Shown: positions 2,307 through 52,717, numbered from the stretch's first letter. The stretch is 64,000 nt of DNA from an uncultured delta proteobacterium (GCA_963796685.1 CAWCMR010000008.1:608001-672000), one strand, 5' to 3'. Program-made: numbers and translations. The notes: generated by a model not told the origin, from the letters alone.

Positions 2307-2370
2307 CGATTCAGCAACCGCTCCTGCTCGCGACGTGAAAACACGCGGCTTTCGTGTCAGAAACAATCCC

Positions 2371-3204: not shown

Positions 3205-4161
3205 ATGGCGCGCGCAATCTCGACCGGGACGATTTCCTTCGGGCTGGTGTCGATTCCAGTCAAGCTCTACTCGGCCACCCAATCCTCGGCAGGGGTTTCC
3301 TTCAACCTGCTGCATGGCAAGTGCGGCTCGCGGCTCAAGCAGCAGTACGTTTGCCCCGTGGACAACGAGGTCGTCTCGCGCGACGAGATGGTCAAGGGCT
3401 ACGAGTTCGCGAAGGATCAGTACGTCACCTTCACCCCCGAGGAGCTGAAGGCACTGGAAGAGAAGGCGACGCAGTCCATCGAGATTGCCCAATTCGTCCC
3501 GCGCGAAAGCGTCGATCCCCTGTACTACGAAAAAGCCTACTACCTAGGTCCCGAGAAGGGCGGGGAAAAGGCGTACCGCCTGCTCGGCACGGTGATGCGC
3601 GATGCGAACCGCGCCGCCGTGGCCCGCTATGCGGCGCGGGGCAAGCAGTACATCGTCATGCTTCGTGTCTCGGACAACGCCCAGGGCGGGATCGGCATCA
3701 TCATGCAGACGTTGTTGTACGCCGATGAGGTTCGCCCCTTCTCCGAGGTTCCCATTCCCGATGCCGAGGTGAAGGAATCCGAGGTCAAGCTCGCCAAGCA
3801 GCTCGTCGATCAGATCGGCTCGGAGACGTTCAACCCCGCGGACTACGAGGACGATGTCCGCAAACGGATCCAGGCCGACATCGAGCGCAAGGTCGCGGGC
3901 AAGGAGATTGCCACGGCGCCGACCGCGCCCGAGACCGGACGGGTGATCGATTTGATGGAGGCCTTGAAGGCGAGCCTGGGCGAAGGCCGCCCGGCCGCCA
4001 AGACGCCAAGTGATGTGGCGGCCGCGCCCATTGCCAGCCTGGCGAAGGCAGCGGAGGCGGAGGGCGTTCTCGAGCGCAAGCCCGCCCGGCGCGCCAATGC
4101 GACGGAGGATGCCGTGTCGGGTACCAAGGCCGAGGCACGGAAGCGGGCGAGCAAACGGTGA
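3205..4161 (+). CDS. ku: NHEJ DNA-end-binding protein Ku
   Basis: MARAISTGTISFGLVSIPVKLY, VKGYE and VIDLMEALKASL motifs with a basic C-terminal tail. Confidence 0.95.
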   Translation: MARAISTGTISFGLVSIPVKLYSATQSSAGVSFNLLHGKCGSRLKQQYVCPVDNEVVSRDEMVKGYEFAKDQYVTFTPEELKALEEKATQSIEIAQFVPRESVDPLYYEKAYYLGPEKGGEKAYRLLGTVMRDANRAAVARYAARGKQYIVMLRVSDNAQGGIGIIMQTLLYADEVRPFSEVPIPDAEVKESEVKLAKQLVDQIGSETFNPADYEDDVRKRIQADIERKVAGKEIATAPTAPETGRVIDLMEALKASLGEGRPAAKTPSDVAAAPIASLAKAAEAEGVLERKPARRANATEDAVSGTKAEARKRASKR

Positions 4162-8879: not shown

Positions 8880-10188
<1,309 letters not shown>

Positions 10189-15742: not shown

Positions 15743-17041
15743 TTAGTTGACTGCTGCGCAGAACTGCTTGGTCGTGAGACCGTCGCCGCCGGACCAGATC
15801 TCGAAGCCGGCGAAGACGAGACTCAAGTACATGCTGCTGGTGACGCCGTACTTGTTGCTTACGGCATCCTTGATGAAGTTGTTCAGGTCGTATGACAGCG
15901 AGTCGAGGGGCGTGCTGCTGACATAGGAGATGCACGGCGGATCGGTGCTGCTATCGACCCACACGTCCCACGTGCCAGGCACGCCGCCGACCGTCATACC
16001 CGGATGGTTCGGCGACGCGCCCGTAGCTGAGCTGGACCCACCCCGGGGCTGGCGATCGGACGGCTTGTACAGCCACACCATCAAATAGGCCCCGCCCTGC
16101 CCCGGCGAATTGGACATGGTACCGAGCTTGGCACTGGTCGCCGTGAACCACACGTCGTAGGTCGCGTTGAAGTTCGAGGTGTCGAGCGTGCTGGCGTTGG
16201 TGGAGAAGATCGTGGGAACCGATTTGATGGCCGACACCTGCATCGGCAGGTTGCTCCCCACCGTGGTGTGGTTCTGGTACGAGCCGATGAAGATCGTGGG
16301 GAACCCCATGGGATTGCCGTCGCTGGCCGGCACCGAAGTACCTTGCGAATTGCCCACGGTCATCGACAGCCCGGTGATGTCCACGGTCTGGCCACCGAAC
16401 TTGTGCCACCAGTTGGTCATCGTGTGGTAGGTCTTGGTCGAGTTGGTTACCGTGATCTCGCCGTCCTGGTACTGCTTGGTGAAGGACAGGGGGGTGGTCG
16501 AGGTGTCGGTGCAGTCGACGGATGCCGTGCTTCCGCCGGTCGCTGTAGTCCCGCCCGCGCCCGCCGAGCCGCCGCTGCCAGCCGCGCCGCTGCCGGCAGC
16601 ACCGCCGCCAGCCGTGCCGCCTGTTTGACCGTTGCCAGCCGAGCCCCCCGTCATGCTCGTGCCGCCGCTGCCGGCCGTGCCACCGCTACCGGCCGTGCCG
16701 CTTGAACCGGCCGAGCCCGTCTTGCCGCCGCTACCGGTCACCCCGCCCGAGTTGCCGCCGCTGGCCGTGGTGCCACCCGTGACAGTGGCCCCACCCGAGC
16801 CCGAGCTACCCCCGCTGGCCGTGGTGCCGCCCGCGCTGGTCGTCCCGCCTGACGCGGTCGTTCCACCCGTGGCCGTTGTTCCACCATTTCCGGTCGTCCC
16901 CCCCGAGCCGCCCTGCCCGCCAGACGCTGCCGACCCACCCGATCCCGAGGTAACCCCCTGGTTATTGACGTTGCACGCGAGAATCGCGCCGGAAAAGACG
17001 ACAAGCATCGCGGCCGTAACGAGTGGTCTCTCGAATATCAT
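15743..17041 (-). CDS. GH12-like glycoside hydrolase lipoprotein with Gly/Thr-rich linker
   Basis: Lipobox ILAC, GGTT-repeat linker, NATYDVWF, YLMVWL, FAGFEIW. Confidence 0.75.
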   Translation of the reverse strand: MIFERPLVTAAMLVVFSGAILACNVNNQGVTSGSGGSAASGGQGGSGGTTGNGGTTATGGTTASGGTTSAGGTTASGGSSGSGGATVTGGTTASGGNSGGVTGSGGKTGSAGSSGTAGSGGTAGSGGTSMTGGSAGNGQTGGTAGGGAAGSGAAGSGGSAGAGGTTATGGSTASVDCTDTSTTPLSFTKQYQDGEITVTNSTKTYHTMTNWWHKFGGQTVDITGLSMTVGNSQGTSVPASDGNPMGFPTIFIGSYQNHTTVGSNLPMQVSAIKSVPTIFSTNASTLDTSNFNATYDVWFTATSAKLGTMSNSPGQGGAYLMVWLYKPSDRQPRGGSSSATGASPNHPGMTVGGVPGTWDVWVDSSTDPPCISYVSSTPLDSLSYDLNNFIKDAVSNKYGVTSSMYLSLVFAGFEIWSGGDGLTTKQFCAAVN

Positions 17042-17361
17042 GGGATGTCCTTCCTTGAACTAGCCAGGGATCCCTCGCTGCTGTCCCGTCATCAGCCTCA
17101 GGTGTTAGAACACGCACGAAGCCGCTTTTGAGCAGATGCAGTTGTCTGGACCAAAGGTGAGCAGCAAGAAATGGCAACTCGGCGCCACTTCTAGCTTGTG
17201 GTTTCCAGATCGTCAGTGCTCTACTTCGTCGCTAGCTAGGCTAGTTTCCGAGTTCTTCTGCATTCCCGACGATACTGTCGCCTGGCCGGCCTCAACGAGG
17301 CGGTCGCGAATTCGACCAATCCCTGAGATCCGTGACTCGGCCTGAATGCCCCGGAGGAGAT

Positions 17362-18870
17362 ATGAAGGTCCAAACTGCGCTAGGAATCCTGGTTGCCGTG
17401 CTTTTCGTCGCGCCAGGCTGCGGAAGCGATAACCCGCAGGCCCAGTCGGGTTCTGGCGGCCGGGGCGTAGGCGGAGGCGCTGGCAACGGCTCCGGAGGCA
17501 GCGGCGTGGGCGGAAACGCCGGCAACAACGTGGGCGGAGGCGCCGGCAGCGGCTCGGGGGGCAGCGCGGGCAACGGCGCGGGGGGCATCGCCTTGGGTGG
17601 TAGCGGCGGCGGTTCGGGCGGCGTCAAGACTGGAGGCACGACGGGCAGCGGCGGCAATGCGACAGGCGGGGCGGGCGGCAACTCGATGGGCGGCGGCGGC
17701 AATCCCGATTCCGCCGCTGGAGGTACCGGCGCTGGTGGTTCGACCGCCCGGGATGGCGGACGAGACACGATTCCAGGTGTTGGTGGCGGCGGGGAAAATG
17801 GCGGCGGGGCGACTGGCACGGGTGGTTCCACGGGCGCGGGCGGCTCCACGAATACCGACGCCGGCAGCGGCGGTCAGAATATCTGCACGTTCGCCAGCGG
17901 TCTGAATGTCGCCTGGGTTCAGTTTGCCGGTGACGTTCCGAATACCAGCTCGAACATCGCGACCTTCAACACGATCTTCAAGAACACCTACGACAGTGGT
18001 GGACGTATTGTGCGTTGGTGGTTCCACACCAATGGCACTGTCACACCGGGTTATCAAACAGATGGAACAGCCCAGAAGCTCCCACAGTCGCACATCGACG
18101 GTCTCAAGGCGATCTTGTCCGCTGCGAACACCAACAAGCTGGGTGTCGTCGTCAGCCTTTGGTCGTTCGACATGCTGCAGGGACCGGGAAGCGGCGAAAA
18201 CATTCCCAGCGGTACTCTAACCAACAATCAGAAGCTCATCACCCAGGACACGAATCGCCAAGCGTACATCGACAACTACCTCACGCCACTGGTCACGGCC
18301 CTCAAGGGGACCCCTGGGCTTTATGCCTACGAAATTTTCAACGAGCCGGAGGGAATGTCGACGGAGAACGGTTGGACGGCGAACAGCTCGAACCAGGGAC
18401 TCTCGGTTCCTGAGAGCGCCATTCAGAAGACGGTGAACTGGTTTGCCGCCGCCATCCACGCCGCGGATCCAAGAACACCGGTTACCAATGGCTCCCAAAC
18501 CATGGACTACCGTACCCTGTACACCGACAGTGCCTTGACCAGCGCGGGCGGAAAATCGACCGGCACGCTCGATTTTTACGAGGTTCACTACTACCAAGTG
18601 AATGGCTCCAACAACGATGTTTTTGCCAACCCGAGGTCGCACTGGGCCATGTCGGACAAGAAGCTTGCGATCGGGGAGTTCGCCGCTTACTCGCAGGACA
18701 CGTCGCCGGTGGCCGTCAACGACTGCTACACCTACCTCTACAGCAATGGCTACGACGGCGCATGGGCCTGGTCGTACACGGAGGGCAACTCGAACTACGC
18801 CTGGCCATCCATGCAGACACCGATGAAGAATCTCCTTGCGGCCCACGCCGACGTGGGAACTTGTCCATAA
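17362..18870 (+). CDS. GH5-family (clan GH-A) glycoside hydrolase lipoprotein, possible mannanase/endoglucanase
   Basis: Lipobox APGC, Gly-rich linker, YEIFNEPE (acid/base), EVHYY, IGEFA (nucleophile), AWAW. RBS GGAGGAG before ATG 17362. Confidence 0.82.
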   Translation: MKVQTALGILVAVLFVAPGCGSDNPQAQSGSGGRGVGGGAGNGSGGSGVGGNAGNNVGGGAGSGSGGSAGNGAGGIALGGSGGGSGGVKTGGTTGSGGNATGGAGGNSMGGGGNPDSAAGGTGAGGSTARDGGRDTIPGVGGGGENGGGATGTGGSTGAGGSTNTDAGSGGQNICTFASGLNVAWVQFAGDVPNTSSNIATFNTIFKNTYDSGGRIVRWWFHTNGTVTPGYQTDGTAQKLPQSHIDGLKAILSAANTNKLGVVVSLWSFDMLQGPGSGENIPSGTLTNNQKLITQDTNRQAYIDNYLTPLVTALKGTPGLYAYEIFNEPEGMSTENGWTANSSNQGLSVPESAIQKTVNWFAAAIHAADPRTPVTNGSQTMDYRTLYTDSALTSAGGKSTGTLDFYEVHYYQVNGSNNDVFANPRSHWAMSDKKLAIGEFAAYSQDTSPVAVNDCYTYLYSNGYDGAWAWSYTEGNSNYAWPSMQTPMKNLLAAHADVGTCP

Positions 18871-18880
18871 GGCGACGGCA

Positions 18881-19459
18881 ATGTTTCGCCGCTACATCAT
18901 CTGGTCGCTTCCCCTGGTCGCGGTAGCGCTCATCTGGCTGCTGCGAACCCAGGCGGCTACCCGCGAGACGACCAAGGCCAAGGATGAACCTTCTGCCGCG
19001 GCTCCGCCTGATCTGCCAACAGCACGACCGCCATTGCTCGCTCGGCCCGCGGATGCAGCGCCGACATCCGGGCCACCTACCGCAGCTCCGGCGCAGAGCG
19101 GATCAGGAAAAGCCAGTACTGTCCATGCGCTCTCGCCCGCGGACCAACTTGCCGAAGCGAGCTTGATGTCCCGTCTGCGCGCGGCCAAAGCGAGCAACCC
19201 AAAGTTGGCCATCGAGCTCGCTCGACAAGGAAACAAGCGTTTCCCGGACAGCGCCCTGGCACCTGAACGGTATTCGATCTTGGTTCACGCCTTGGCCGAC
19301 ACGGAGCAACGCCGCGAGGCACGCGGCGAGGCGGAATTCATGGTGAACCACTATCCCGACTCCGACTGGGTCAGGGAGATCGAACGATTTTCGGGCGCGC
19401 ACCGCCACCGGAATATCCGCCTGACAGACGCTGGAACGATCGAGTACTACGATCCCTAG
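18881..19459 (+). CDS. Hypothetical membrane-anchored protein
   Basis: N-terminal TM, Pro/Ala linker and a helical C-domain containing RFPDS/HYPDS. Confidence 0.6.
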   Translation: MFRRYIIWSLPLVAVALIWLLRTQAATRETTKAKDEPSAAAPPDLPTARPPLLARPADAAPTSGPPTAAPAQSGSGKASTVHALSPADQLAEASLMSRLRAAKASNPKLAIELARQGNKRFPDSALAPERYSILVHALADTEQRREARGEAEFMVNHYPDSDWVREIERFSGAHRHRNIRLTDAGTIEYYDP

Positions 19460-19855
19460 CCTTGGGGCTTGCCCAGAGCGCCCACACGGCTTTGCGACGC
19501 GGTAGAATCCCGGAATCCCGTTTTCGTTCCCCGTCACCGAGGTGTCACGACCCAGGAGTGCCATCGAGCAGGTACTCTAGTGCTTGGCCAGGTCGCGTCA
19601 AGAGGACAGAAATGGGAACCCTCGACGATCCGCCGCGGTGGTAAGCGCAACGGTGCGGCAGAGCGAAAGGCAAGGTCAAGCCCCATGGATGACAGCATTT
19701 CGAAGTAGGCAGGTTCTGCCGCGTGCGAGATCCGCAGTCGGGTGCGAGGTGCAATGGGCGCCCCCGAACATACCCGCCGCGTTTGCTGCCTCGTAGGGCA
19801 CAAGTTTTCCCTCGGATGTGCCGATAGCCCCGTGTCAGGTGCGGAGCGAGACCCC

Positions 19856-22800
19856 GTGACCATCACTTCGATATCGTCGTTCACTCCACAACAGATCCGG
19901 AGCCTCTCCGCGGTCGACCTGCGCAGCGTCTCCACGACGGATATCGCAACCCTTTCGACCACCCAGGTGCAGGCGCTCACGCCGGTCGAAATCACCGAGT
20001 TGACGCCCGAGCAGGTCGCCAATCTGACGGCCATCGAATGGCTCGCGTTTTCGCCCCCGCAACTCTCCGCCTTGACCCCATCGCAGGTCGCGGTCGTCAG
20101 CACGGGCAAGGTCACGGCGTTAACCACCACGCAGATTCAAGGCCTGCGGAGCACCGACATCGCCGAGCTCCTGCCCACGCAGATCGCGGCCCTCGCCGAG
20201 ACCGAGCTCGAAGCCCTGACCAGCGCCCAGATCAAGGGTATCAAGGCGACCCAGCTCGCGGCCTTGACCACCACGCAACTCGGCTACCTCTCCTCGACCC
20301 AGCTCGCCGGAATCACGGCCTTCGCCATCCCCGGCATGACCGACGAGCAGTGGTCCGCGCTGACCACCACCCAATTCGCCGGCTTGCCAGGCGGCTCTAT
20401 CAGCGCGCTCGATGCCGAGACGCTCGGCAAGCTGAGCAATACCCTCCTGGCCGCGCTCTCGACGGCGCAACTGAAGGGCTTGACCAGCACCAACGTCGGC
20501 GCCCTGGGTCTGCCCCAGCTGGCGGCCCTGAGCGAAACCCAGCTCGCCGGATTGACTTCCGCGGCTCTGCGCGGGCTGACCAACGACCAGGTCGTCGCGC
20601 TGACTACCACGCAGCTCGGCGACATGACGTCGTCGCAGCTCGCGGCGCTTACCACCACCGTGATCGCGGCCCTCACCCCGACCCAAATCGCGGGCCTCGC
20701 GACCACCCAGGTCCAAAGCCTCAGCGGCGCGAGTGTAGGGTTGCTGAGCATCGACCAGTTCGCGGCCTTCGTGGGGACGCAGTTGGCGGCGCTGACCACC
20801 ACCCAGCTGCGCGCCTTGAGCAGCACCGATCTCGGCAACCTGACCACCGGCGAGCTGGGCGCCCTGAGCGCCACACAACTGGGGGCATTCAATATGCTAG
20901 CGGTCCAAGGCCTGTCCGCGGACCAGCTGGCATCGCTGACGACCACCCAGACCGCCGGCCTCGGCGCCGGGCAACTTCGAGGGCTCTCCGTCGAGGCCGC
21001 CCAGGGCTTGACGACGTCACAGCTGGCCGCTCTGAGCACCACGCAGATCGTCGGGCTGACCAGCACCCGCATCGGCGCCCTGACATCCTCGGAGATCGCG
21101 ATCTTCAGCTCCACGCAGCTGTCCGCCCTGGTCGCGACCCAACTCAAGGGTCTCACGGCAGACCAGCTCGGCGAGCTGGCCGAGACGCAGCTGGCAGGAC
21201 TGTTGCCGGCGCAGCTTTCGGCCCTCACGACCACGACGGTCGCCGGATTCACCACCTCCCAGCTGACCTCGCTGACGACGACCCAGATCGCCGGTCTCAG
21301 CTCGGCTGGACTGAGCGCCCTGGATGCCGACCAATTCGCGGCGCTGGCCACATCACAATTGGCCGCCGTCACCAGCGCGCAGATGCGCGGCCTCACCAGC
21401 ACCGACATCGGCGATCTCGCGACCACGTCCCTGTGGTCGCTCAGCCCGACACAACTTTCCGCTATCACGAGCAGCGCCGTCGCGGGAATGAGCGAAGACC
21501 AACTCGCGGGCTTCAGCACGACGCAGATCCGGGCGCTCGGCTCCTCGCTTGTCGCCGCGCTGGCCGACACCCAGATCGGCGCCTTGACCACCACGCAAGT
21601 AGCCGCGCTGACGACCACGCAGTTGCGAGGCATCGGAAGCACGAACAGCGACCAGATAGCGGCTCTCGGCACCGACCAGGTCGCGGCCTTGTCGTCCATC
21701 CAGGTGGCCGCCATCACCACCACCGGGATTTCAGGCCTGACGGCGGACCAATGGGCCACCCTCACCACTACCCAAATTGCACGACTCGGCTCCGCAAGCG
21801 TGGGCGCCATATCCTCGGATCAGATGGCGTGGCTGCCCGAGACGCTGCTTGCGGCGCTCGCCAGCACCCAGATAGTCGGGCTGACGGCGACTGGCCTCGC
21901 CGCGCTCGACCTCGACCAGCTTGCCGTGCTCGCCAGCACCCAGCTCGCGGCGCTGGCCACCGGCTCGATCAGGGGACTCACCGACGAGCAGATTGCCGGA
22001 CTTGCGACCTCGCAGATCGCCGGGCTCACCGGCGCGCAACTTGGCGCGCTGACCATGACGGCCGTCGGAGCCCTGACCACGGACCAGTTGGCAGGCCTCA
22101 CCAACACGCAGATCAAAGGATTTGCTGGCGCCGGGGTCAGCGCACTGAGCCCCCAGCAGCTAGCAGCGTTCAGCACCTCGCAGCTGGCGGCACTGTCCAG
22201 CACCCAGCTCCGAAGCCTCACCAGCACCAACGTGAATGACCTGACCGCGGCCGAGCTCGCTGCGCTCGCGAGCACCCAGCTTGGCGCCCTCAGCACGAGC
22301 GCGATCGCCGGCTTGTCCCCGGAACAGCTCACTTGGATGACCACGACCCAGATGCTGGGCTTGACCTCGGCGCAGCTTGGGGCGCTTACGGTCGATACCG
22401 CTTCCGCGCTCGCGCCGACCCAGCCTGGCTGTGTTGACCGCTACCCAGGTCACGGGCCTGAGCAGGACGAGCATCGCAAGCCTGACCGAGGCCGACCTTG
22501 CCACCCTGAACGTGCGGCAGATCGCGGCCCTGACCACGACACAGGTCGCGGCCCTCGATCCCGACCAGCTCTCCCAATTCACGACCACCCAGGTGGCCGC
22601 CTTGAGCGCAACGCAGCTCGCCGGCCTCACTAGCGTTGCCGCCTCGGGCTTCGCCACGACCCAGCTGGCAGCCCTGACCACCGCCCAGCTGCGTGGGCTG
22701 ACTGGGATGGCGCTAAGCGCGCTGGATGCGGACCAGTTTGGAGCCTTGACCACGACGCAGATGGCCGCCCTGACGACCACGCAGGTCCGCGGCCTTGCCA

Positions 22801-25800
22801 GCGCCGATCTGGGCGAGCTCAGCACATCGGCCCTGGCAGCACTGACCTCCACGCAGGTGGCCTCGCTGCAACCAAACGCGTTCGCGGGGATGAGCGAGGA
22901 CCAGGTGTCCAGCCTGACCACGACCCAGGTGCGAGCCTTGACCGCGGCGGTCGTCGGAGCGCTGGCCAACACGCAGTTTGCAGCGCTGAGCACCGGCCAA
23001 TTGACGGTTTTGACCACGTCGCAGATGCGAAGCCTGGCTGCCACGAACCTCAGCTTGCTGACGGCCAGTGATCTCGCCGCGCTGACCTCGACCCAGCTGG
23101 CCGCTTTGACGACCGGTCAGATCCAAAGCCTGAGCGACGAGCAGTTCGCGCTTCTCACCTCGACCCAGATGGCCAGGATGAGCGCGACTCAGCTCAGCGC
23201 CCTTTCCACCACCGTGGTGGCGGCCCTGAGCACCACCCAGCTGGCGGCCTTGAGCACGAACCAGCTACGCGGTCTGAGCGCCGACGCCGTGAGCGATCTG
23301 AGCGAGGACCAGATGGCGGCCCTGGCGACCACACAACTGGCGTGGCTCACCACCACCCAGATCGCCGGCTTGACCGGCACCGACGTCTCCGAGCTGTCCA
23401 CCACCGAGCTTTCGACCCTGACCTCCGCCCAGGTGGGCGCCATCAGCGGCACGGCCTTGTCCGGGCTCAGCGCCGGCCAAGTGGCGCTGCTCACCACCTC
23501 GCAGGTGCGCGGGTTGACCGCGACCTCGGTCGCCGCGCTGGCGGACACGCAACTGAACGCGCTCGCCAGCACCCAGATCGCAGCCTTGTCGTCGAGCGCG
23601 ATGGCAGGGCTGACGTCGCAAGAGGCGGCGGAGCTGAGCACCACCCAGATCGCTGCCTTGCTGCCGGCGCAGATGGCCGCGCTGACCAGGACGGCGGTGG
23701 GTTCTCTCGACAGCACCCAGGTGTCCACGCTGTCGACCACGCAGATCGCCGCTCTGACCTCCGGACAAATCGGCGCGCTGAGCGCCACGGCGGTGGCGAG
23801 CCTGCAGACGACGCAAGTGGCGTCCATGAGCGCCATGCAAATGGTCGGGTTCACGGCCACGGGGCTCGGGTCGATGACCGCGAGCAACCTCGCCGGGTTG
23901 AGCAGCACGCAACTGCATGCCCTCACGGCTACCCAGATTGCCGGACTTTCGGGCGATACCGTGGCCGCCCTGGGCGTCACGGGCTTGTCCGCGTTGAGCG
24001 CCTCGCAGCTGTCCGCACTGAGCACCACCGGAGCGCAGGGCCTGAGCCAGGCGCAACTCCGGTCCCTGTCGACCAACCAGCTCAAAGGATTGACCGCCTC
24101 CGCGGTCGCGTCGTTGGCGTCCACGCAGATGGCCGCCCTGCTCACGACCCAGCTTTCGGGCTTGAGCACCACGGCGATCGCGGGCCTGAGCTCGCAGCAG
24201 GTGGCGGCCTTGAGCAGCGACCAGTTCGCGGCCTTTGGAACGACGCAGCTGGCGGCCTTGTCCGCATCGGGAGCACGGGGCCTGACCGGGGATCAATTGG
24301 GCGGTCTGGACAGCCCCAGGCTGTTCGCCCTCAAGGCATCCCAGCTCGCGGCGCTTTCCACCGCCCAGATGGGCGACCTGGCCGACACCCAACTGGCGGC
24401 CCTGTCCACCACGGGAATCAAGGGCCTCGTGCGTACGCAATTGGGGGCACTGTCGCTGACCCAACTCGGGGGCCTGACCCCGAGCCAGATCGCGGCCCTG
24501 TCGGGCGACGCGCTTTCCGGGCTGACCACCACCGAGGTGGCGGCGCTCACGGGGACCCAGCTCGAGGGGGTGAGCCCGGCCCAACTCGGACTCTTCACGG
24601 ACAGCCAGATTCTCGCCCTGACGCCGACCCAAGTCGGCCAGCTTTCCAGCACGCAGGTCGCAGGCCTGAGGGCATCGCAGATTGGCGATCTCAGCGCGGG
24701 TCAGATCGGCGCCCTCTCCATGACCCAGCTTCTCGCCCTCTCCACCAGCACGCTGGGCGGGCTGACCTCCACGCAAGTCGCCACCCTCGCCACCACGCAG
24801 CTCGCTGGGCTGGGAGAGGCCCAGATCAAAGCCCTGTCGACCACGGCCATCGGTGGGCTCACGAGCAGCGAGCTGCCGGTGTTGACCTCCAGCCAGGTTG
24901 GCGCGCTCACCCTGGCCCAGATCGCCGCCATGTCCGAAAAACAAATCGCCGGGTTGGCAACCACGCAGCTGGCGGCCCTGGGCAACGGCGCCATCGCCGG
25001 ACTCGCCGACACGCAGATTTCTGCCATGTCCACCGACCAGCTCACCAGCTTGTCCAACGCACAAATCGGCTCCCTGACGAACGCCGCGGTAGCCGGCCTC
25101 GGCACCGACGACCTGGCGGCCTTTGCCGACAGCCAGGTGGCCGCCCTTTCCCTGGGCGGTGTGGCGTCCCTTGGCGCGAGCCAGATGGCAGCCCTCAGAT
25201 CGGACCAGCTGGCGTCACTGTCCACGTCCCAGATAGCGTCGTTATCGACGACCGCGGTCGCGGCCATCGCCACGAGCTCCATCGCCAATCTGGCAGCGAG
25301 CCAGTTCGCGGCACTCACCGGCGAGCAATTCGGAGCGCTGACCGTGACCCAGATCGCCTCGTTCTCGACCGATCAAATCGCCCATCTCACGCCGGACCAG
25401 ATCGCCGGCATGGTCGACACCCAGGTGGCTGCGCTGGCCACCACCCAGCTTGCCGCGCTCTCACAAGGGCAGCTGGTCTTGCTCTCGGTGGTGGGCGTGG
25501 AGGGCTTCTCACCCGGCCAGATCGCGACGCTGACGACCAGCCAAATCGCGGCCCTTTCCGGCGACCAGCTGCAAAGCTTCAACCAAGAACAGCTGGCCGC
25601 TTTGACAGCGGGGCAGATCGGCGCCATGTCCGCCGATCAGCTCAACGGTCTCGCCGACACCGAAGTTGCGCTGCTGTCGAATACGCAACTGGGCGGCCTT
25701 ACGGAGACCCAGATGGCGGCGCTGGATACCGCGCAGGTGGGCAGCCTCACCAGCAACCAGCTGGAGGGGTTGACCCAGGGACAGCTTCTGGCGCTGAGCA

Positions 25801-28453
25801 CAGCGCAGATCGCCGCGCTCGGCGGCACGGCCATTGCCGGGATGACCACGGACAAGCTGGCGCTGCTGACCACGCGGCAGCTCGCGAGCCTGACGCCCGA
25901 TCAGTTCGGCGCGCTCGCCACGACGCAGATCGGGCTCTCGATGCGACGCAGCTCGGGGTGTTGACCCCCGCGGAGCTGGGTGGATTGACCGATACCCAGA
26001 TAGGCACCCTGGCAGCGACCCAGCTGGCGGCTCTCAACGGCACCCAGATGGCCGCCTTGCCGGTATCGGCGCTGGATGGCTTGACCGCGACGCAGATCGG
26101 TGGACTGTCGCAGACCCAGCTCAACCAACTGACGGGGGCGCAGCTGGCGGCCCTGAGCACGTCGCAGCTCGCGGTGTTGACGCCGACCCAAGTCGCTTTT
26201 CTGAGCACGACCCAGATACGCGGCTTGACCACCACGGTGGTCGCCGGGCTGACCACCAGCCAGCTCGACGCCCTTGCGCTCACGCAGTTGGCCGAGCTGA
26301 GTACAGGGCAAATCGCCGCCTTGGTCAGCACCGAGGTGGGGGCGCTCTTGGCCACCCAGCTGGCGGCCCTGAGCACGACCCAGATCGCCGCTCTCGGCAC
26401 CTCGGCCATCGTGGGACTGACCGCGGGCTCCCTGGCCGCCCTGAGCACGAAGCAGCTGGCAGCACTTTCGACGACCCAGATGGCAGCTTTGACGACGGCG
26501 CAGGTGGCAGCGCTGTCGACAAGTCAGCTACGTTCTCTTGCCGCCACCCAGATCAACGGGCTCACGTCCACCGCCGTAACGACCATGACCACCACGCAGA
26601 TCGCCGCACTCACCACCACCCAGTTGGCCGGATTGTCCTCCTCGGGCGTGAAGGGCCTCACCCCCGACCAGATCGACGCGCTGTCGTCGAGCCAATTCGC
26701 GGCGTTGACCGCCTCGGAGCTCGGCGCTCTGACCACGACGCAAGTGGGCCTGTTGCTGACAGCGCAAGTCGTCGCCCTTTCCACCACTCAGTTGAGAGGC
26801 TTGCCGGCAACCGCCATCGCCGCCTTGAGCGGCACGCAGCTCGACGCCCTCACCACGTCGCAGGTGGTGGCCTTGACGGCCGGACAGATGGCCGGGCTCA
26901 CGTCGAGCCAGCTTGCAGCGCTTGCCGCCACCCAGCTCGTGGCGCTGACGTCGACCCAGGTCGCGGGGCTGTCCACGACCGGGCTGGTCGGGTTGACGAC
27001 GGATGAGCTGAATGAGCTATCCACCAAACAACTGGCGGCAATCACGGCCGGACAGATGGCGGCGTTGACGTCGTCTCAAGTGGCCGGGATGTCTACGACC
27101 CAGATCTCGGCTCTCTCGCGCATTCAAATGGGCGCCCTCTCAGGCAGCGCGGTGGGGGCCCTCACCTCGACCCAAATCGGCACGCTGACCACCACCCAAG
27201 TTGCCGCCCTGTCCTCCACCGGCGCCACCGGCCTGACCCCGGACCAAGTCGCCGATCTCTCGCCCGACCAGTTGGCGGCCCTCACGTCGACTGCGCTGGC
27301 CGGTTTGTCCTCGACGACCATCGCTGGTTTGGGCTCAGGCGTTCTCGCCGCCCTGACCACCACCCAGTTCACGAGCTTGGGGGCGAGCGGCATCTCCGCC
27401 CTCACCACCAGCGTCCTGCAGGATCTGTCCACGACCCAAGTGGGACTCTTGACCGCCACCGAGATCGCCGGGCTGACGTCCAGTCAGATTGCGGCCTTGA
27501 CCACCGGTCAGATCGGGGCGCTGTCGACCTCGCAGATGTCCGCCATGTCCGCCAGTGGCATCAACGGCCTCACCCCGACCCAGGTTGCCGGACTCGCCGC
27601 GACCCAGCTGGCGGCCCTGTCCGCGACCCAGATGGCCGGTCTGTCCGACGCAGCGGTGTCCGGCCTGACCGGAGATGAATTCTCGGGCCTGACCACGACG
27701 CAGTTCAAGAGCTTGTCGGCAACCGGGGTGGCAGGGTTGTCGGCCGGCCAAATCGCGAGCCTCACCACTTCGCAGCTCGCCCTGCTCAGCGTCACGGAGC
27801 TGAGCGGGCTGACCAGCGCACAGGTCGGCGCCTTGACGCCCGCCCAATTCGCCACGCTGGCCACGAGCCAGATCGGTGCCTTGTCGGAGGAGGGCATCAC
27901 CGGAATGAGCCCGGCGCAGTTTGCGGCGATGAGCTCGACGCAATTCGCGGCCCTGACGTCCGACCAGCTAGCCGCGCTGACCACCGCCGAAGTGGGCATG
28001 TTGTCCACGTCCCAGATAGCCGCGTTGACCCCCGACCAGATTGGCGGTTTGGAGCGAATGCAACTTCGCTCCCTTTCCACGGCGCAGCTGGCCGCGTTGA
28101 CCACGACGCAGGTGGCGGCACTGGACGAGGTGCAGATCTCCAGCCTCACGGCGACCGAATTCCAGAACCTGTCGCCGGCCCAACTGGGAGCGCTAGGGCC
28201 GTGGCAGATGGCGGCCCTGACGGCCACCCAACTCGGCGCATTCGCGCCCACCCAGATAGCCGCGCTGGCGGCGACGCAGTTCAGCGAAATCACGACCACG
28301 ACCATCGCCGCGCTCTCGGTGACGACCTTATCGTCCTTGACGACCGAGGAGCTCGAAGCGCTCGATGCCACCCAAATCGACGCACTCACGGCAACCCAGT
28401 TGGCCAGCATGACGCCGGAACAATTGGCGGCCCTGAGTGACGCCGAAGTTTAG
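19856..28453 (+). CDS. Giant Ser/Thr/Ala/Leu-rich octapeptide-repeat protein (~2,865 aa), two compensating frameshifts (~22424, ~25934)
   Basis: ORFs 19742..22633, 22377..25964 and 23342..28453 carry one continuous L-[TS]-x-x-Q-x-x-x repeat. GTG at 19856 with GGAG upstream. Confidence 0.88.
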
Positions 28454-28467
28454 CGAGAAGACAGCCG

Positions 28468-30531
28468 ATGGCGACCGACCTGTTCACGACTGCTATCATC
28501 CGATCGACCGCACGCAGCTTCAGCGTCGCCGACCTGATCCGCACGGCGGAGATGCTGAAGCAGGAGGCCCAGGCCGACCTGGTCGAGGTGCTGTATGCGA
28601 CCTGGGTCCAGCACAACCAGGACAACCCGCTGCTTTATGCGGTTCTATTCAACCACTCGGTCGTTCTCTCGGATGGCGGCAAGCTGGAGGCTGCTCGCGC
28701 GTGTCTGGAGAAAGCGTTGAAGCTCAATCCCGAGTTCATCCCGGCTCACATCAACCTGGGACGACTCTACGAAAGGCTGGGAAACGTCGCCCCGGCTCTC
28801 GTGCAATGGAGCGTCGCTCTGGCACGCATGGCGCCGGTGAACGGAGCCTCGGTGGGGTACAAGACGACTGCCCTCAATCAAAGCGGACGCGCGCTGGAAG
28901 CCGCCAATCAAGACGAGGCGGCGGAGGAGATGCTGCGACAGAGCCTCGAGCTGGACTCGCACCAAAGCGAGGTCATTCAGCACGTCGTCGCCCTTCGACA
29001 ACGGCAGTGCAAATGGCCAACCGTCCTGCCTTCGGAAAGAGTGTCGGCCAGGGCGCAGGTGGAGGGCATGTCGCCGCTGTCGATGGCCGCGCATACCGAC
29101 GATCCGATCATGCAGCTGGCCGCGGCGTGCAAGTACAACCGAGACGACGTCGGCACGCCCAAGGAGGCACACGTGGAGTGGCCGGCCGCAATCCCCGGCT
29201 CGGGCCGACTGAGGATCGGCTATCTGTCGTCCGATCTGCGCGAGCACGCGGTTGGGTTCCTGATGACCGAGGTGCTGGGTCTGCACGACCGGGAGGCGGT
29301 GGAGGTGTTCGCCTACTATTGTGGACCGGAGGCCAAGGACAAATTGCACGCGCATTTCCGCGAGACCGCGGACCACTTCAAGGACATCACGTCGCTCGGC
29401 GATGAAGCCGCCGCACGCCAGATGGTGGAGGACGGCATTCAGATCCTGGTCGACCTCAACGGTTACACCCGCGAGGCGCGCTTGAAGGTCGTGGCGCGTC
29501 GGCCGGCGCCGGTGATCGTCAACTGGCTGGGATTTCCCGGCACCATGGCCAGCCCCTACCACCACTACATCATTGCCGACGACTGGATCATCCCGCCGTC
29601 CCACGAGGGGTACTTCTCGGAGAAGGTGCTGAGGCTGCCGTGCTACCAGCCAAGCAGTCGCAAGCGCGAAGTCGCGGCCGCGACGCCGTCCCGCCGCGAC
29701 GTGGGTCTGCCGGCCGAGGGCATGGTCTATTGTTGCTTCAACGGCGCCCACAAGATCAATCGCTTCACCTTCAACCGATGGCTCATGATCATCGCCCGTG
29801 TGCCGGGCAGCGTGCTGTGGCTTCTGGGAGGCTCGGAGGCGGCCAATCGACGCTTGCAGGACTACGCCGCCGAGCGCGGCGTGGCCAAAGAACGGATCGT
29901 GTTCGGCGACAAGCTGCCGAATCCGGCGCACCTTGCGCGCTACGCCCTGGCGGATCTATTTCTCGATACGACCCCATACGGAGCCCACACCACCGCCTCC
30001 GATGCCCTGTGGATGGGCTTGCCGGTGCTGACGTTCAGCGGACGCTCGTTCGCCTCGCGGGTGTGCGGCAGCCTGGTGCGCGCGGCGGGAACGCCCGAGA
30101 TGGCGTGCAGCACGGCCGAGGAGCTGGTCGAACGCGCGGTCGAGCTCGGCAGCGAGCCCGGCAAGCTGGCCACGGTAAGGGACAAGCTGCGTGCCCAGCG
30201 CGACACGTGCGTTCTGTTCGACATGCCGCGCTTGGTTCGCCGCTTGGAAGATCTGTTCCGGCAGATGTGGCACGAGCACCAGAGCGGTCAGCTGCCGCAG
30301 CCGGATCTCGCGAACCTTGAAGTCTATCTAGAGGTGGGGAGCGAGGTCGACTACGACGATGTCGAAGTGCAGACCATCGCCGACTACGAGGGCTGGTGGC
30401 GGGCGCGGCTTGCCCGGCGGCATCACCTTCGCCCCATCCCCCACGACCGGCGCCTGGTACAGCCGTCGGAACAGTTTCGCCCTGGGGAATGTTCGCGCCA
30501 CCCGTATCCGGCGGACCACGGGAACCCCTGA
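28468..30531 (+). CDS. O-GlcNAc transferase/SPINDLY-like glycosyltransferase (GT41) with N-terminal TPRs
   Basis: RLRIGYLSSDLREHAVG, LVDLNGYT, NWLGFPGT, CFNGAHKI, DLFLDTTPYGAHTTASDALWMG, FASRV. Confidence 0.92.
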   Translation: MATDLFTTAIIRSTARSFSVADLIRTAEMLKQEAQADLVEVLYATWVQHNQDNPLLYAVLFNHSVVLSDGGKLEAARACLEKALKLNPEFIPAHINLGRLYERLGNVAPALVQWSVALARMAPVNGASVGYKTTALNQSGRALEAANQDEAAEEMLRQSLELDSHQSEVIQHVVALRQRQCKWPTVLPSERVSARAQVEGMSPLSMAAHTDDPIMQLAAACKYNRDDVGTPKEAHVEWPAAIPGSGRLRIGYLSSDLREHAVGFLMTEVLGLHDREAVEVFAYYCGPEAKDKLHAHFRETADHFKDITSLGDEAAARQMVEDGIQILVDLNGYTREARLKVVARRPAPVIVNWLGFPGTMASPYHHYIIADDWIIPPSHEGYFSEKVLRLPCYQPSSRKREVAAATPSRRDVGLPAEGMVYCCFNGAHKINRFTFNRWLMIIARVPGSVLWLLGGSEAANRRLQDYAAERGVAKERIVFGDKLPNPAHLARYALADLFLDTTPYGAHTTASDALWMGLPVLTFSGRSFASRVCGSLVRAAGTPEMACSTAEELVERAVELGSEPGKLATVRDKLRAQRDTCVLFDMPRLVRRLEDLFRQMWHEHQSGQLPQPDLANLEVYLEVGSEVDYDDVEVQTIADYEGWWRARLARRHHLRPIPHDRRLVQPSEQFRPGECSRHPYPADHGNP

Positions 30532-31415: not shown

Positions 31416-32732
31416 ATGGATATGACCAGCCAAGAACCTCCAGAAACGCCCGCGCCTCTGCCATCGCCGCAGGCCCCGGTTCCCCCGGCGGCCCCAGCCA
31501 TCGCCAAGCAGGATTCCCTCCGCTTCGCCATCACCGCGCTATGTGTCGGCCTCTTGTGCCTGGGCGTCGTGTGGCGATTCATCGACCTCGACTACCCGCG
31601 AACCTTCAGCTTCGACGAGCACCATTTCGTCAGCAACGCGCGCAACTACATCGGCCACAGACCCGACTGGAACGACCATCCCCCGCTCGGCAAGCTGGTC
31701 CTCATCCCGGCCATGCTGATCTTCGGCGATCGGGGCCTCGGGTGGCGGCTGTCATCGGCGATCTTCGGCCTGGCCATGGTCGTCCTGGCCGGGCTTGCGG
31801 CGGCCAGGATCTTCGGCGACCGGCGGGTTGGGCTTCTGACCGCGACCTTTCTCGCCATCGACGGATTCTTCATCTCCTATGCCCGCACGGCGCTCATCGA
31901 CAACCCGCTGACGGCGTTCATCTACGCGGCCCTGGCCTTGATGCTGTGGGCGCGGTCGTTGCGCTGGTTCGCGGGCGCCGCGCTTTGCGTGGGCCTCGCG
32001 GTGGCGAGCAAGTGGACCGGGGTGTGCGTGCTCCTGCTCGCCCCCATTCTTCTGCGACGAGCGGGGAAGTCGGTCTGGCACACCGTCTGGATGTTCGGGC
32101 TGGCCGCGCTCGTGTATCTCGGCATCGGCGTCGAGGCCCTGCACCTGACTCGGCAGCCCATCTCGATGGCCGGCATGATGCGTTCGAACTGGACCCTCCT
32201 TCAACACCACGCCGGATTCACCACCTGGGACAATCCCGCCAGCTCGAAGTGGTACACCTGGCCCTTGCTCCTCCACCCCATCGTCATGCACCACGAGCAG
32301 GTCGGCCCGGCCACGGTGCGCGCGACCTCGACCATCGGCAACCTACTGCTCTGGTTCGGCACCACGGCTTCCATCGTGCTGGCCCTTGTCGGCCTGGCGC
32401 GCACGGCTTTTCGCTGGTTGCGCGCGCGGGTGGCTGTCGCCGCCCGGCACCGGCAGGACGCCTTGGTGTTGACGGGCATGGTGGCGCTCATGCTGCCATT
32501 CATCGCGACCCACCGGCAGTCCTACATCTTTCACTACCTGGGCGCCTATGGCCTGGGCCTAAGCCTTCTTGCATCCCGCGTGGCACGCCTCGAACGACGC
32601 TCGTCGCTGGCCGCCCTCGCCTTTCTCGCCTGCGCGGCGAGCATCTCGATGCTCTACCTACCGCTGTGGATAGGCACCCCGCAGAGCGTGCACGCGTTCC
32701 TTCTCCGCCTCCCCTTCCCAGGCTGGCGTTAA
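31416..32732 (+). CDS. Protein O-mannosyltransferase-like glycosyltransferase (GT39/PMT)
   Basis: SFDEHHF, DHPPLGK, ASKWTG and S-x-WYTWP motifs; multi-TM. Confidence 0.85.
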   Translation: MDMTSQEPPETPAPLPSPQAPVPPAAPAIAKQDSLRFAITALCVGLLCLGVVWRFIDLDYPRTFSFDEHHFVSNARNYIGHRPDWNDHPPLGKLVLIPAMLIFGDRGLGWRLSSAIFGLAMVVLAGLAAARIFGDRRVGLLTATFLAIDGFFISYARTALIDNPLTAFIYAALALMLWARSLRWFAGAALCVGLAVASKWTGVCVLLLAPILLRRAGKSVWHTVWMFGLAALVYLGIGVEALHLTRQPISMAGMMRSNWTLLQHHAGFTTWDNPASSKWYTWPLLLHPIVMHHEQVGPATVRATSTIGNLLLWFGTTASIVLALVGLARTAFRWLRARVAVAARHRQDALVLTGMVALMLPFIATHRQSYIFHYLGAYGLGLSLLASRVARLERRSSLAALAFLACAASISMLYLPLWIGTPQSVHAFLLRLPFPGWR

Positions 32733-32735: not shown

Positions 32736-32985
32736 CTAGAGCACCGAACGGGTTGAATTCCTCCTGAATCCAAGGGATTGCCTGGCGCCGCCGAGGCCGC
32801 TGTGCAGAGCGCGCACAAGCTTTTTTTTCACCACAGAGAACACAGAGGGCACAGAGGCCCGGAAAAGTAAGGGGTTTCCGGATCTCGATCCGAACCCTTC
32901 ATTTCTCATCCGTCTCTGTGTTCTCTGTGTCCTCTGTGGTTAGAATCCGGAAATTGCTCGGGTTTCAAACCGTTCGGTGCTCTAG
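32736..32985. mobile_element. MITE-like element with 22-bp terminal inverted repeats, enclosing CACAGAG palindrome copy 2
   Basis: Left CTAGAGCACCGAACGGGTTGAA versus right TTCAAACCGTTCGGTGCTCTAG (21/22 match). CTAG at both ends; non-coding. Confidence 0.7.
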
Positions 32986-34007
32986 TAGATCTCGACTTCG
33001 GCCAGGTGGAAGAAGTTGGGCGGGGTGTTCTTGAGGCGCACGTAGCGCCCCTCGGCGTGCAGCCCCTTGACGGTCCACTTGTCGAAGGTCTCTTTGCGCT
33101 CGGCGATCTGCTTGTAGTTCTGGTTGTCGTTGCTGACTTCAATCTTCAGCGGCACGGCCCGTTCCTCGAATCCGTCGGGCCGGTTGTACACGACGATCTT
33201 GTGGAACTTGACCACCTTGCCCAAATCGATCACGACCCACTGCTGGCCGCCTTCCAGGGTATGGAACCCGAGGGTGTCGGGATCGCCGTCGACGAGCAAG
33301 GAATGATCCACGCCTTGGCCCGGGAACTGGCTGCTGACCGTGACCGCGGCATGGAGCGCGAGATCGGGCCCGCTCAGCTTCTTGCTGAGCCACCTGCCGG
33401 ACAACGCGAGGGCCACCGCCAACACCACCCCCACCACGAACACGCGTGACCAGCGGGCGAAGAGCACGCGCCCCAGCCGATTGGCCTCCATCTCGAGCGG
33501 TTCCGCCAGGCGCATCACCAGATCGTGCAACCCGATGGCGAAGGAATCGCGCTCCTCACCGGCAAGCTTTGCAATGGTCGCATCCCGGTCCGGGCCGAGC
33601 AAGGCCATCAAGGTCGCGGAATGCTCGGGTGCGAGCTTGGCCCAGGCGGCCTCCACGATGGGAATTCCTCGCGCACTCTCCCAGTCGCCGGGACCAAGCG
33701 GACCCGTCCCGGTCGGCATACCCGAGCGTGCCAGATACGCGCGCGTGAGCAATTCGACGGCCGTCGTATCGAGCAGCAGCACCGCCCAGCTCCCCTTCCC
33801 GGTTTCGCCGATCTTGACCACATCGTCGCAGATCTGCCGCGCGACCTCGTACCAGGCGAACCCCGGCTTGGAGGGACCGAAGGTCTGCTCCCGCGCCTCG
33901 GCCACGCGCGGCCCCATCCACAACACCCGGCCAAGCCAGCTCGATGCCGGCTTCGCCTGCTCCTCGGTGGTCTGCCCGCTCACGTTCTCGCTGTTGTCGT
34001 CGCTCAT
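32982..34007 (-). CDS. Membrane protein with C-terminal discoidin (F5/8 type C) domain
   Basis: TM followed by VTVSSQ, LVDGD, WVVIDLG, VVYNR, GRYVRL, LAEVEIY. Confidence 0.8.
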   Translation of the reverse strand: MSDDNSENVSGQTTEEQAKPASSWLGRVLWMGPRVAEAREQTFGPSKPGFAWYEVARQICDDVVKIGETGKGSWAVLLLDTTAVELLTRAYLARSGMPTGTGPLGPGDWESARGIPIVEAAWAKLAPEHSATLMALLGPDRDATIAKLAGEERDSFAIGLHDLVMRLAEPLEMEANRLGRVLFARWSRVFVVGVVLAVALALSGRWLSKKLSGPDLALHAAVTVSSQFPGQGVDHSLLVDGDPDTLGFHTLEGGQQWVVIDLGKVVKFHKIVVYNRPDGFEERAVPLKIEVSNDNQNYKQIAERKETFDKWTVKGLHAEGRYVRLKNTPPNFFHLAEVEIY

Positions 34008-51985: not shown

Positions 51986-52555
51986 ATGGACGAAGACCGT
52001 ATAGCGATAGTCGACCTTGCCGACGAACTCCAGGTTCGCAAGCAGCGCCTCTTCAAGATCATAAAGAGGCTCGGAATCACGGCGACACAGCGCCGTGATT
52101 CCGAACGTGGAGGTCAGAATGTAGCCGTTGTCAGTGCTAGCGAGGCCGCCGCCATTCGCAAGGAAATCGGAAGCCCTTCCTCGACGGACTCATCCGACGC
52201 GGCGGCGTCGCCGCAGCTTCTCGACGACGTTGGATTCTTCTATTTGATTCGTCTTGAGCCTGATCACGATCCTGGGAGGTTCAAGGTCGGGTTCACTATC
52301 GAACTCGAGGGCAGGCTTCAGAAGCACCGCTGCTCGGCTCCCTTTGCGGCGTACCTCAAAACGTGGCCGTGTCGACGCGTTTGGGAGCGAGCCGCGATCG
52401 ATTGTGCGACCCTCGGTTGCGAGAAGCTCCACACCGAGGTGTTTCGCGCCGACTCGCTGGACATGGTCGCCAGTCGCGCCGATACCTTCTTCTCAGTGAT
52501 GCCGAGCCTTCTTGCGGAGGTGTCAGAGGCCGCGGACCGTGCAGGGGACGGATAA
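51986..52555 (+). CDS. Cassette: N-terminal HTH-like + GIY-YIG/T5orf172-like nuclease
   Basis: GFFYLI...FKVGFT...RLQKH...TEVF pattern. Stop codon lies in the attC R''. Confidence 0.6.
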   Translation: MDEDRIAIVDLADELQVRKQRLFKIIKRLGITATQRRDSERGGQNVAVVSASEAAAIRKEIGSPSSTDSSDAAASPQLLDDVGFFYLIRLEPDHDPGRFKVGFTIELEGRLQKHRCSAPFAAYLKTWPCRRVWERAAIDCATLGCEKLHTEVFRADSLDMVASRADTFFSVMPSLLAEVSEAADRAGDG

Positions 52556-52717
52556 CATGCCGTTGCAGCTGACAAGGGCCTGTCAACTCTCGGTCGACGG
52601 TCAACGAGCCGGGGCCACGCGGCTCTCAACAATTTCCGCGGCCGCCGCGCGGCCCCGGCAGTGCAACTATCGACCATCACGTAACGGCCCTTGCAGCTGA
52701 ACGGCAAGGCGTTGGGC
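52550..52717 (+). repeat. attC site 2 (long type, 168 bp)
   Basis: GGATAAC-ATGCCGTTGCAGCTG...CAGCTGAACGGCAAGGC-GTTGGGC. Confidence 0.88.

Follow-up and report, generated by a model that had tools for sequence, protein, structure and literature searches.

A giant ALTTAQ-repeat protein encoded beside an OGT-like glycosyltransferase: a candidate glycosylated rod of the alpha-helical-screw type

In Haemophilus influenzae, HMW1C, a GT41 N-glycosyltransferase without TPRs, N-glucosylates the N-x-S/T sequons of the adhesin HMW1, which uses two-partner secretion. The serine-rich repeat glycoproteins of Gram-positive cocci are served by GtfA/GtfB and the accessory Sec system, while AIDA-I and TibA are modified by heptosyltransferases. 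GT41 enzymes in general act in the cytoplasm. Homologues of OGT, a GT41 enzyme, are common in bacteria, and we know of none with an established physiological substrate. Here we describe a gene pair at positions 19856-30531 of a 64,000-nucleotide stretch of DNA from an uncultured delta proteobacterium (GCA_963796685.1 CAWCMR010000008.1:608001-672000; this whole stretch is termed the window, and positions are counted from its first letter). The first gene encodes a giant protein built almost entirely of the octapeptide unit catalogued in Pfam as the ALTTAQ repeat, and the second a TPR-GT41 protein. The adjacent sugar-adding enzyme is probably dedicated to the ALTTAQ protein, as judged from the sequence comparisons below. 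For the joint reading, in which a rod made only of ALTTAQ units would be O-glycosylated by the adjacent enzyme and exported as a glycosylated fibre, we see about an even chance.

The pair recalls HMW1C and HMW1 in that a GT41 enzyme is encoded beside a very large protein, which in the HMW1 case receives its numerous modifications inside the cytoplasm and is exported afterwards. The window enzyme, however, has TPRs, and its candidate substrate contains only 5 sequons in 2,865 residues. An HMW1C-type N-glycosyltransferase was therefore rejected (NF049992, with a score of 24.5 bits where the cut-off is 1000; 32 Asn and the same 5 sequons in the putative substrate). The serine-rich repeat glycoproteins and AIDA-I/TibA share with the system proposed here the arrangement of a dedicated cytoplasmic O-glycosyltransferase gene beside a long Ser/Thr-rich repeat adhesin with dedicated export, but they depend on other enzyme families (GT4, BAHT), on disordered or beta-helical substrates and on other export routes. 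The bacterial OGT homologues XcOGT (2JLB/2VSY) and Thermobaculum terrenum OGT (5DJS) resemble the window enzyme in possessing a short TPR domain and two GT-B lobes and in lacking the metazoan intervening domain; the difference is that the window enzyme has a conserved neighbour suggesting a substrate. The landmarks of the pair are as follows.

19843..19846 (+): GGAG, read from the sequence, a candidate ribosome-binding site 9 nt 5' of the GTG start
19856..22423 (+): ALTTAQ gene, first piece; 856 codons in frame 2 with a GTG start; PF20080 E=1.9e-107, 351.1 bits, 23 stretches
22423..22425 (+): first frame break, a +1 shift, one surplus base in ...CCCAGCCTGGCT...; repeat spacing 577
22425..25934 (+): ALTTAQ gene, middle piece; 1170 codons in frame 0; PF20080 E=3.6e-141, 459.0 bits, 35 stretches
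25932..25936 (+): second frame break, a -1 shift, one base short in ...ATCGGGCTCTCGAT...; repeat spacing 863
25934..28453 (+): ALTTAQ gene, last piece; 839 codons plus TAG in frame 2; PF20080 E=1.3e-123, 402.8 bits, 28 stretches
28454..28467 (+): spacer of 14 nt between the ALTTAQ and GT41 genes
28468..30531 (+): TPR-GT41 gene; 687 aa, with TPRs at residues ~44-200, catalytic lobes at ~244-618 and no intervening domain

The octapeptide array fills 19856-28453, and the read-through product has 2,865 residues. No single open reading frame covers this region; those listed are 19742..22633, 22377..25964 and 23342..28453, in two frames, followed by 28468..30531. In translation, frame 2 is repeat to ~22423, then Arg/Pro/Gly-rich nonsense with two stops, and repeat again from ~25934, and frame 0 is clean repeat between 22425 and ~25934. 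At the first break (an extra base near 22424), ...ACCCAGCCTGGCTGTGTTGACC... is one base over for ...T-Q-L-A-V-L-T..., and at the second (a missing base near 25934), ...CAGATCGGGCTCTCGATGCG... is one base under for ...Q-I-G-A-L-D-A.... When the breaks are read through, the 8-residue register is continuous across both, and the DNA repeat copies straddling them are spaced by 577 = 24x24+1 and 863 = 24x36-1, respectively. Thus, we regard the region as one gene with two single-base indels, and three separate genes are ruled out by the persistence of register and spacing. The single protein of about 2,865 residues proposed in a first-pass annotation of this DNA is upheld as to the array and the read-through length, but not as an open frame of 2,865 codons, the sequence giving three frame pieces instead. 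GTG at 19856 is the likely start, since the N-terminus conserved in the relatives, M-T-S-I-x-S-S-L-[ST]-x-x-Q-I, is that of the window product. The repeats run from about residue 5 to within a few residues of the TAG stop at 28451-28453.

Such breaks are not confined to this gene. Enolase (~8880-10176, minus strand) carries one extra A (CAGAATC) within the conserved KVNQIGSLTET at 9117-9174, leaving its C-terminal part in another frame, and the Prim-Pol domain of LigD (139-2366, minus strand) is spread over two frames, with profile positions 1-91 in one and 89-245 in the other. GT41, citrate synthase, purD, purH and further window genes are whole. As two other genes of the window are frameshifted too, both breaks are likely to be assembly errors, and the ALTTAQ gene is probably intact in the organism. 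Programmed frameshifting was ruled out, as no slippery sequence was found and housekeeping genes of the window are also broken. One may alternatively consider a true pseudogene, in which both frameshifts are real mutations and the full-length protein is not made. The frame is indeed broken twice, a stop follows 69 codons past the first break, and the relatives in P. asturiensis and Pseudoroseomonas are likewise annotated in pieces. Nevertheless, single-base indels that keep the 8-residue register, a middle piece of 1,170 open codons scoring 459 bits to PF20080, and the general assembly indel rate to which the enolase insertion and the split LigD Prim-Pol domain point render a pseudogene unlikely. 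The ALTTAQ genes of P. asturiensis (L004 11885-19176) and Pseudoroseomonas cervicalis (L010 16485-21572) both show out-of-frame tails, and indels, real or erroneous, seem to arise readily in long GC-rich repeat genes like these.

A heuristic register model applied to the read-through product yielded 358 units with a single register break at residue 596 and the consensus L-[TS]-[TS]-[T]-Q-[LIV]-A-[AG]. From position 1 to position 8, the units comprise L (85%); T (41%) and S (33%); T (32%), S (18%), A (17%) and P (9%); T (46%) and S (15%); Q (68%); L (39%), I (25%) and V (21%); A (48%) and G (17%); and A (45%) and G (27%). Residue identity at lag 8 was 0.326, against a mean of 0.118 (sd 0.006, maximum 0.134) in 500 shuffles, and the periodicity peak at lag 32 was slightly higher than that at lag 8. 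Ser and Thr account for 772 of the 2865 residues, and Cys is absent. The first-pass annotation had described some 350 near-uninterrupted units of L-[TS]-x-x-Q-[LIVFM]-x-[AG]: the number of units and their continuity are borne out, but the strict motif L[TS]xxQ[LIVFM]x[AG] occurs only 103 times, the remaining units being degenerate. The divergence of the units at the DNA level, claimed by the same annotation, is evident from a mean unit-to-unit nucleotide identity of 0.50, from the absence of any 24-nt unit occurring twice and from the six codons spelling the Leu of position 1. Tandem Repeats Finder returned short arrays only (12 with a 24-nt period and 62-83% matches, plus one 9-nt array), and longer DNA copies were 60-81% identical.

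All three pieces of the gene match PF20080 with 351-459 bits against a gathering score of 26.4. The repeat family is therefore already catalogued and not new; PF20080 is a curated Pfam family without described function, no NCBIfam model for the repeat was found, and the name ALTTAQ did not appear in the literature searched. The other Pfam matches of the protein, to CAAP1, Sigma70_r4_2 and LRR_EndoS, are weak and contain no qualifying stretch. Pfam gave no match to RTX (HemolysinCabind), and no signal peptide was seen at the N-terminus by eye, in agreement with the initial description of a protein devoid of RTX motifs, globular domains and a signal peptide. A leucine-rich repeat protein was rejected, as the period is 8 residues instead of 20-30 and the structural model (see below) has no strands; the matches to LRR_EndoS (34 bits) and to plant leucine-rich repeat kinases (E=5e-9 and weaker) are attributable to the Leu periodicity.

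We built a profile (A1) from 20 in-register 256-residue pieces of the window protein and of its homologues at two loci, L001 and L002. Among 1.84 billion proteins, the profile matched 7,352 representatives at E<=1e-3, 2,755 at E<=1e-10 and 760 at E<=1e-30, and intact relatives of 2,303-2,913 aa exist. Many of the relatives are multidomain giants, and nine were re-scanned with Pfam. In eight of them the array lies beside two-partner secretion (TPS), RTX, calpain-type protease, LysM/SH3, Calx-beta or F5/8-type-C domains, and the ninth (P0083) bears G8 and CEMIP beta-helix domains with no ALTTAQ match at the threshold used. ALTTAQ arrays thus appear to be mostly parts of exported or surface proteins. 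In contrast to these mixed architectures, the window protein consists of the repeat alone.

The fold of the array was modelled. AlphaFold2 run on A1 (first row window:26777-27544, 256 residues) returned a model with a pLDDT of 93.2 and a pTM of 0.83, in which 32 units form 32 helices of 4-6 residues, each starting from unit position 3, and no strands. As the helix starts there, the Ser/Thr of position 2 would be the N-cap and the Gln of position 5 the N3 residue. The model is consistent with two proposals of the first-pass annotation, namely a solenoid, here with one short helix per unit, and a helix N-capping box of the [ST]-x-x-[QE] type. A phmmer search of PDB sequences found 9ZEM_A ("HeliScrew4") at E=1.9e-17 and 4.2e-18, whose units read L-[TS]-P-[ED]-Q-[IFV]-A-A. 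A 2025 preprint describes such designed 8-mer "alpha-helical screws" with an apolar core and S/T/D/N N-caps, together with a crystal structure at 2.2 Å; it regards the fold as almost absent from nature, names 7QLR as the only natural instance among PDB entries and raises the question of why natural proteins seldom adopt it (bioRxiv 10.64898/2025.12.04.691947). The geometry expected of this type is a right-handed superhelix with 2.5-4 units per turn. The core and cap rules of HeliScrew fit the unit composition of the window protein (L 85% at position 1, L/I/V 85% at position 6, T/S 74% at position 2), and the two share the 8-residue period, the Leu plus hydrophobic core, the S/T N-cap, Q/E as the N3 residue and small amino acids in positions 7-8. 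HeliScrew4 differs in being a 120-residue design, with P, E or D where the window protein has T/S. As the design was derived from random repeats, the likeness is convergent. Foldseek of the model against PDB gave best TM values of only ~0.3-0.36 (mesothelin, LegL7, armadillo designs) and did not return 9ZEM, which the fold library may not contain, so the fold assignment relies on the model and the sequence match. Altogether, the ~2,865 residues probably form an extended rod built of very short helices, as in a HeliScrew-type alpha-helical screw.

The GT41 gene starts at 28468, 14 bp past the TAG of its neighbour, as had been noted in the first pass, and the start is confirmed by homologues spanning 95-100% of the query. 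No terminator-like site was found between 28380 and 28470, and co-transcription of the two genes is therefore likely. The protein scored 262.5 bits to PF13844 (cut-off 25), and TPR_8, TPR_2, TPR_12, TPR_11, TPR_1 and TPR_19 each exceeded their own cut-offs. In the phmmer search, the closest solved relatives were human OGT (1e-88), XcOGT (7e-83), T. terrenum OGT (7e-57) and SPINDLY (2e-52). When aligned with human OGT, the window protein passes over the metazoan intervening domain and retains the SSD..H, FN..HK and HTT..D stretches, which we take to hold catalytic residues. As for the donor sugar, the sequence does not separate UDP-GlcNAc, GDP-fucose or others, and the sugar-nucleotide neighbours vary by locus.

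The pairing of the two genes recurs outside the window. A genome-collection scan with rare Met-containing octamer patterns recovered two loci: L001, in an alphaproteobacterial metagenome-assembled genome, has an intact ALTTAQ gene of 1,697 aa followed by a GT41 gene whose product is 50% identical to that of the window, while the ALTTAQ gene of L002 runs off its contig. The counts below cover plasmid records and L001, the gene context of the closest GT41 relatives (65-73% identical) lying outside them. An ALTTAQ match was detected in 61 of 72,556 plasmid records. A GT41 match at E<=1e-105 was present in 14 plasmid records, every one of which belonged to the ALTTAQ-bearing set; this was equally true of the 14 with a match at E<=1e-100 to GT41 of the Cereibacter type, a second clade that is 35% identical to the window enzyme. 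The union of both clades comprises 26 records, and in every one of them the pair lies within ~9 kb. The hosts, which are Alpha- and Gammaproteobacteria, are Cereibacter (11 records), Rhizobium (8), Pseudomonas (2), and Shinella, Pseudorhizobium, Niveispirillum, Pseudoroseomonas and Rhodovastum (one each); as many of the records are related, they may represent perhaps a dozen independent lineages. The expectation of the first-pass annotation that the homologues are linked to GT41 genes thus holds in one direction, for L001 and for each of the 26 plasmid records in which a close GT41 is present, but not in reverse, where it applies to only 26 of 61. Tandem GT41 genes, one of each ALTTAQ-linked clade, were observed in Pseudoroseomonas (L010 7432-11234) and Niveispirillum (NZ_CP025613.1 847940-851676). 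In the literature searched we found nothing relevant on bacterial GT41 gene neighbourhoods, on GT41 together with type I secretion and repeats, or on any union of helical screw, octapeptide and OGT.

GT41-linked arrays also differ in composition from the others. With a heuristic register caller, we compared 10 linked proteins with 16 others (3 unlinked ALTTAQ-only and 13 multidomain proteins). Positions 3 and 4 together held a median of 1.06 S/T per unit (0.89-1.65) in the former versus 0.61 (0.16-1.01) in the latter (one-sided Mann-Whitney p=7e-5, uncorrected for relatedness). In nine of the 10 linked proteins, one of the exposed positions is S/T in 73-97% of units; the window protein is the exception, with 50% and 61%. 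The helical-screw fold itself needs no S/T at positions 3-4, since P, E or D occupies them in the designed screw. The Ser/Thr display along the array proposed in the first pass agrees with this enrichment. The one-way linkage and the compositional signal together support a putative enzyme-substrate relation between the two proteins.

From these data, we propose the following. Each 8-residue unit would be one short helix, capped by the Ser/Thr of position 2 and closed by the Gln of position 5, and Leu-1 and the hydrophobic residue of position 6 would pack as a continuous apolar core. Because the units would be capped helices on a shared core, the 358 units would wind into one long rod, with positions 3 and 4, mostly Thr/Ser, facing outward. 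The TPR-GT41 protein, apparently co-transcribed, may O-glycosylate the hydroxyls of positions 3/4 in the cytoplasm, and the modified protein would then be exported to yield a glycosylated surface or extracellular fibre, which may serve as an adhesin or as a component of a matrix or coat; in some relatives, export may proceed via the adjacent type I secretion system. A stronger version, to which we give somewhat less than an even chance, holds that ALTTAQ-only giants are helical screws hundreds of units in length and the abundant natural home of this fold, and that in a widespread proteobacterial subgroup the dedicated OGT-like enzyme places sugar on the exposed Thr/Ser of nearly every unit, giving a stiff bottle-brush fibre, mucin-like in character, whose export requires no signal peptide.

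Several observations weigh against the proposed dedicated pair and exported fibre. In the available sequence, the reading frame of the repeat gene is interrupted. Close GT41 genes are missing from 35 of the 61 ALTTAQ-bearing plasmid records, any GT41 match at E<=1e-5 from 9 of 17 Rhizobium records, and both GT41 and type I secretion genes from within 15 kb of the ALTTAQ genes at all three loci inspected for them (Shinella, Thioclava and XES5), indicating that the ALTTAQ family can do without a GT41 gene beside it. In Shinella sp. PSBB067, the pair lies on a 4.6-Mb record and another ALTTAQ gene stands unpaired on a plasmid, and GT41 action in trans is therefore possible. The S/T comparison depends on our own register caller, samples few lineages and includes 13 proteins of unknown GT41 status. 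As the peptides on which OGT-type enzymes act are extended, the screw once folded may be modified poorly, which puts the timing of modification in question. At least 119 relatives of the window enzyme among the matches listed (P0122-P0240) are 65-73% identical to it, with source names including Desulfovibrionales, Opitutaceae, Lentisphaerota and Polyangiaceae; such identity across phyla is unusually high for a bacterial glycosyltransferase, and would also fit a broader role. No type I secretion family was found among the 37 window open reading frames scanned, which adds to the lack of a visible signal peptide. A complex prediction in which a 128-residue ALTTAQ fragment was combined with GT41 (687 aa; alignment of 18 rows) scored 0.00 twice without controls and is no evidence either way.

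The high identity of the GT41 relatives, unusual for a single-substrate enzyme, also bears on an alternative in which the two genes are linked but the enzyme modifies another substrate (flagellin, a type I substrate or many cytoplasmic proteins), the rod being a co-regulated surface component or a TPR-bound scaffold. We examined the surroundings of 10 linked loci (the window, L001, L003, L004 and L008-L013). Flagellar genes adjoin two of them, namely flagellins and FlgE in Pseudorhizobium (L008 10091-14101) and an flh/fli/flg export cluster in Rhodovastum (L011 248-7358), and an RTX/Calx-beta protein adjoins the pair in Cereibacter. Flagellar type III export, or flagellin as a second substrate of GT41, are possibilities. 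However, the ALTTAQ gene is the sole partner common to the 26 records and L001, flagellar and RTX genes are missing at most loci, and the S/T enrichment at exposed positions is specific to GT41-linked arrays. Thus, we consider a different substrate unlikely and retain the ALTTAQ protein as the probable one. Sugar-nucleotide genes adjoin 6 of the 10 loci (rfbABCD, UDP-glucuronate decarboxylase, glf twice, gmd and an epimerase/dehydratase) and methyltransferase genes 5; in the window, neither these nor flagellar neighbours were found in the open reading frames scanned.

The route of export, left unexplained in the first pass, is clarified in part. Type I secretion genes adjoin 4 of the 10 linked loci (Cereibacter, P. 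asturiensis, Pseudoroseomonas and Pseudomonas sp.), and elsewhere ALTTAQ is fused to TPS and RTX modules, but no such system was found in the window open reading frames scanned. The Cereibacter secretion system may not serve the ALTTAQ protein, since the RTX/Calx-beta protein adjoins it. A type I secreted adhesin of RTX kind was rejected for the window protein, which has no HemolysinCabind match and no type I secretion family in the open reading frames scanned around it. The lack of a visible signal peptide and of secretion genes, together with the cytoplasmic action of GT41 enzymes, would suit a rod that stays in the cytoplasm as a ruler or cytoskeletal element and is modified there in the manner of eukaryotic OGT. 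We regard such a rod as very improbable, because ALTTAQ is elsewhere joined to TPS, RTX, LysM and Calx-beta modules typical of exported proteins and because of the four loci with type I secretion genes. The ABC transporters of the Cereibacter (L003 9520-11694) and Pseudoroseomonas (L010 13765-15906) systems are of the C39-peptidase-domain type; the double-glycine leader for such transporters, which we take to be L-S-x-x-E-L-x-x-I-x-G-G, is superficially like one ALTTAQ unit.

The Cereibacter homologue is labelled "ICE nucleation protein" in RefSeq records, and the 8-residue period and Thr richness presumably resemble ice-binding repeats. One could thus envisage an unglycosylated Thr/Ser ladder as a surface that orders water or ice or binds minerals or polysaccharides. 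The label looks like an annotation artefact, as other records name the same protein "heme utilization protein", and it exists only as an annotation on the Cereibacter records: an ice nucleation protein was rejected, with no match in Pfam at E<=0.01 and none in NCBIfam. In addition, the predicted structure is all-helical and not a beta-solenoid, and the conserved GT41 linkage argues for modified hydroxyls. We find an unmodified ladder hardly credible in comparison with a glycosylated rod. Nothing relevant was found in the literature searched on an ice nucleation protein of sphaeroides plasmids.

Other features of the window were recorded around the pair. A membrane glycosyltransferase of the PMT-like GT-C type (protein O-mannosyltransferase family) is encoded at 31416-32732 (plus strand), 0.9 kb 3' of GT41. 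Two GH12 genes (15743-17041, minus strand; 17332-18870, plus strand), one GH5 gene of the cellulase family (49778-51427, plus strand) and one F5/8-type-C gene (galactose-binding-like; 32982-34007, minus strand) lie around the locus and suggest a polysaccharide-degrading lifestyle. The PMT-like GT-C protein, the F5/8-type-C protein, o339, o299 and o207 were rejected as parts of the system for want of a tblastn match in L001-L010, as were GH12 and GH5, which had no match in L001 and L002, the only loci checked for them. The ~1 kb 5' of the repeat gene (18871-19855) has no convincing open reading frame and no Rfam family, and the G+C content is lower there (0.61 in 18001-20000). ARAGORN called an 85-nt tRNA-Arg(gcg) within the repeat gene (26810-26894, minus strand), probably a false positive since Rfam gave no tRNA there at the gathering score. 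A Ku gene is located at 3205-4161, near LigD. A match to group II intron D1-D4 (56456-56587, minus strand; 65.6 bits) is found beside an ISL3 transposase fragment (56966-57880, minus strand), and G+C drops from ~0.66 to 0.57-0.62 across the last 12 kb (52000-64000).

What is new in this locus is that it connects a Pfam repeat still lacking characterisation with a fold considered near-absent from nature and with a conserved OGT-like partner. ALTTAQ is an apparent natural counterpart of the helical screw, which would run here for 358 units and belong to a family of thousands. Its regular and conserved array presents a concrete candidate substrate for a bacterial OGT homologue. If true, it would be the first physiological substrate for such a homologue, and the pair would parallel, in Gram-negative bacteria, the serine-rich-repeat glycoprotein systems. 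Should the pairing be borne out, it would represent a new kind among the few dedicated systems that glycosylate a protein in the cytoplasm and then export it, and would provide a rigid rod of natural origin as a scaffold whose attachment sites are programmable and evenly spaced.

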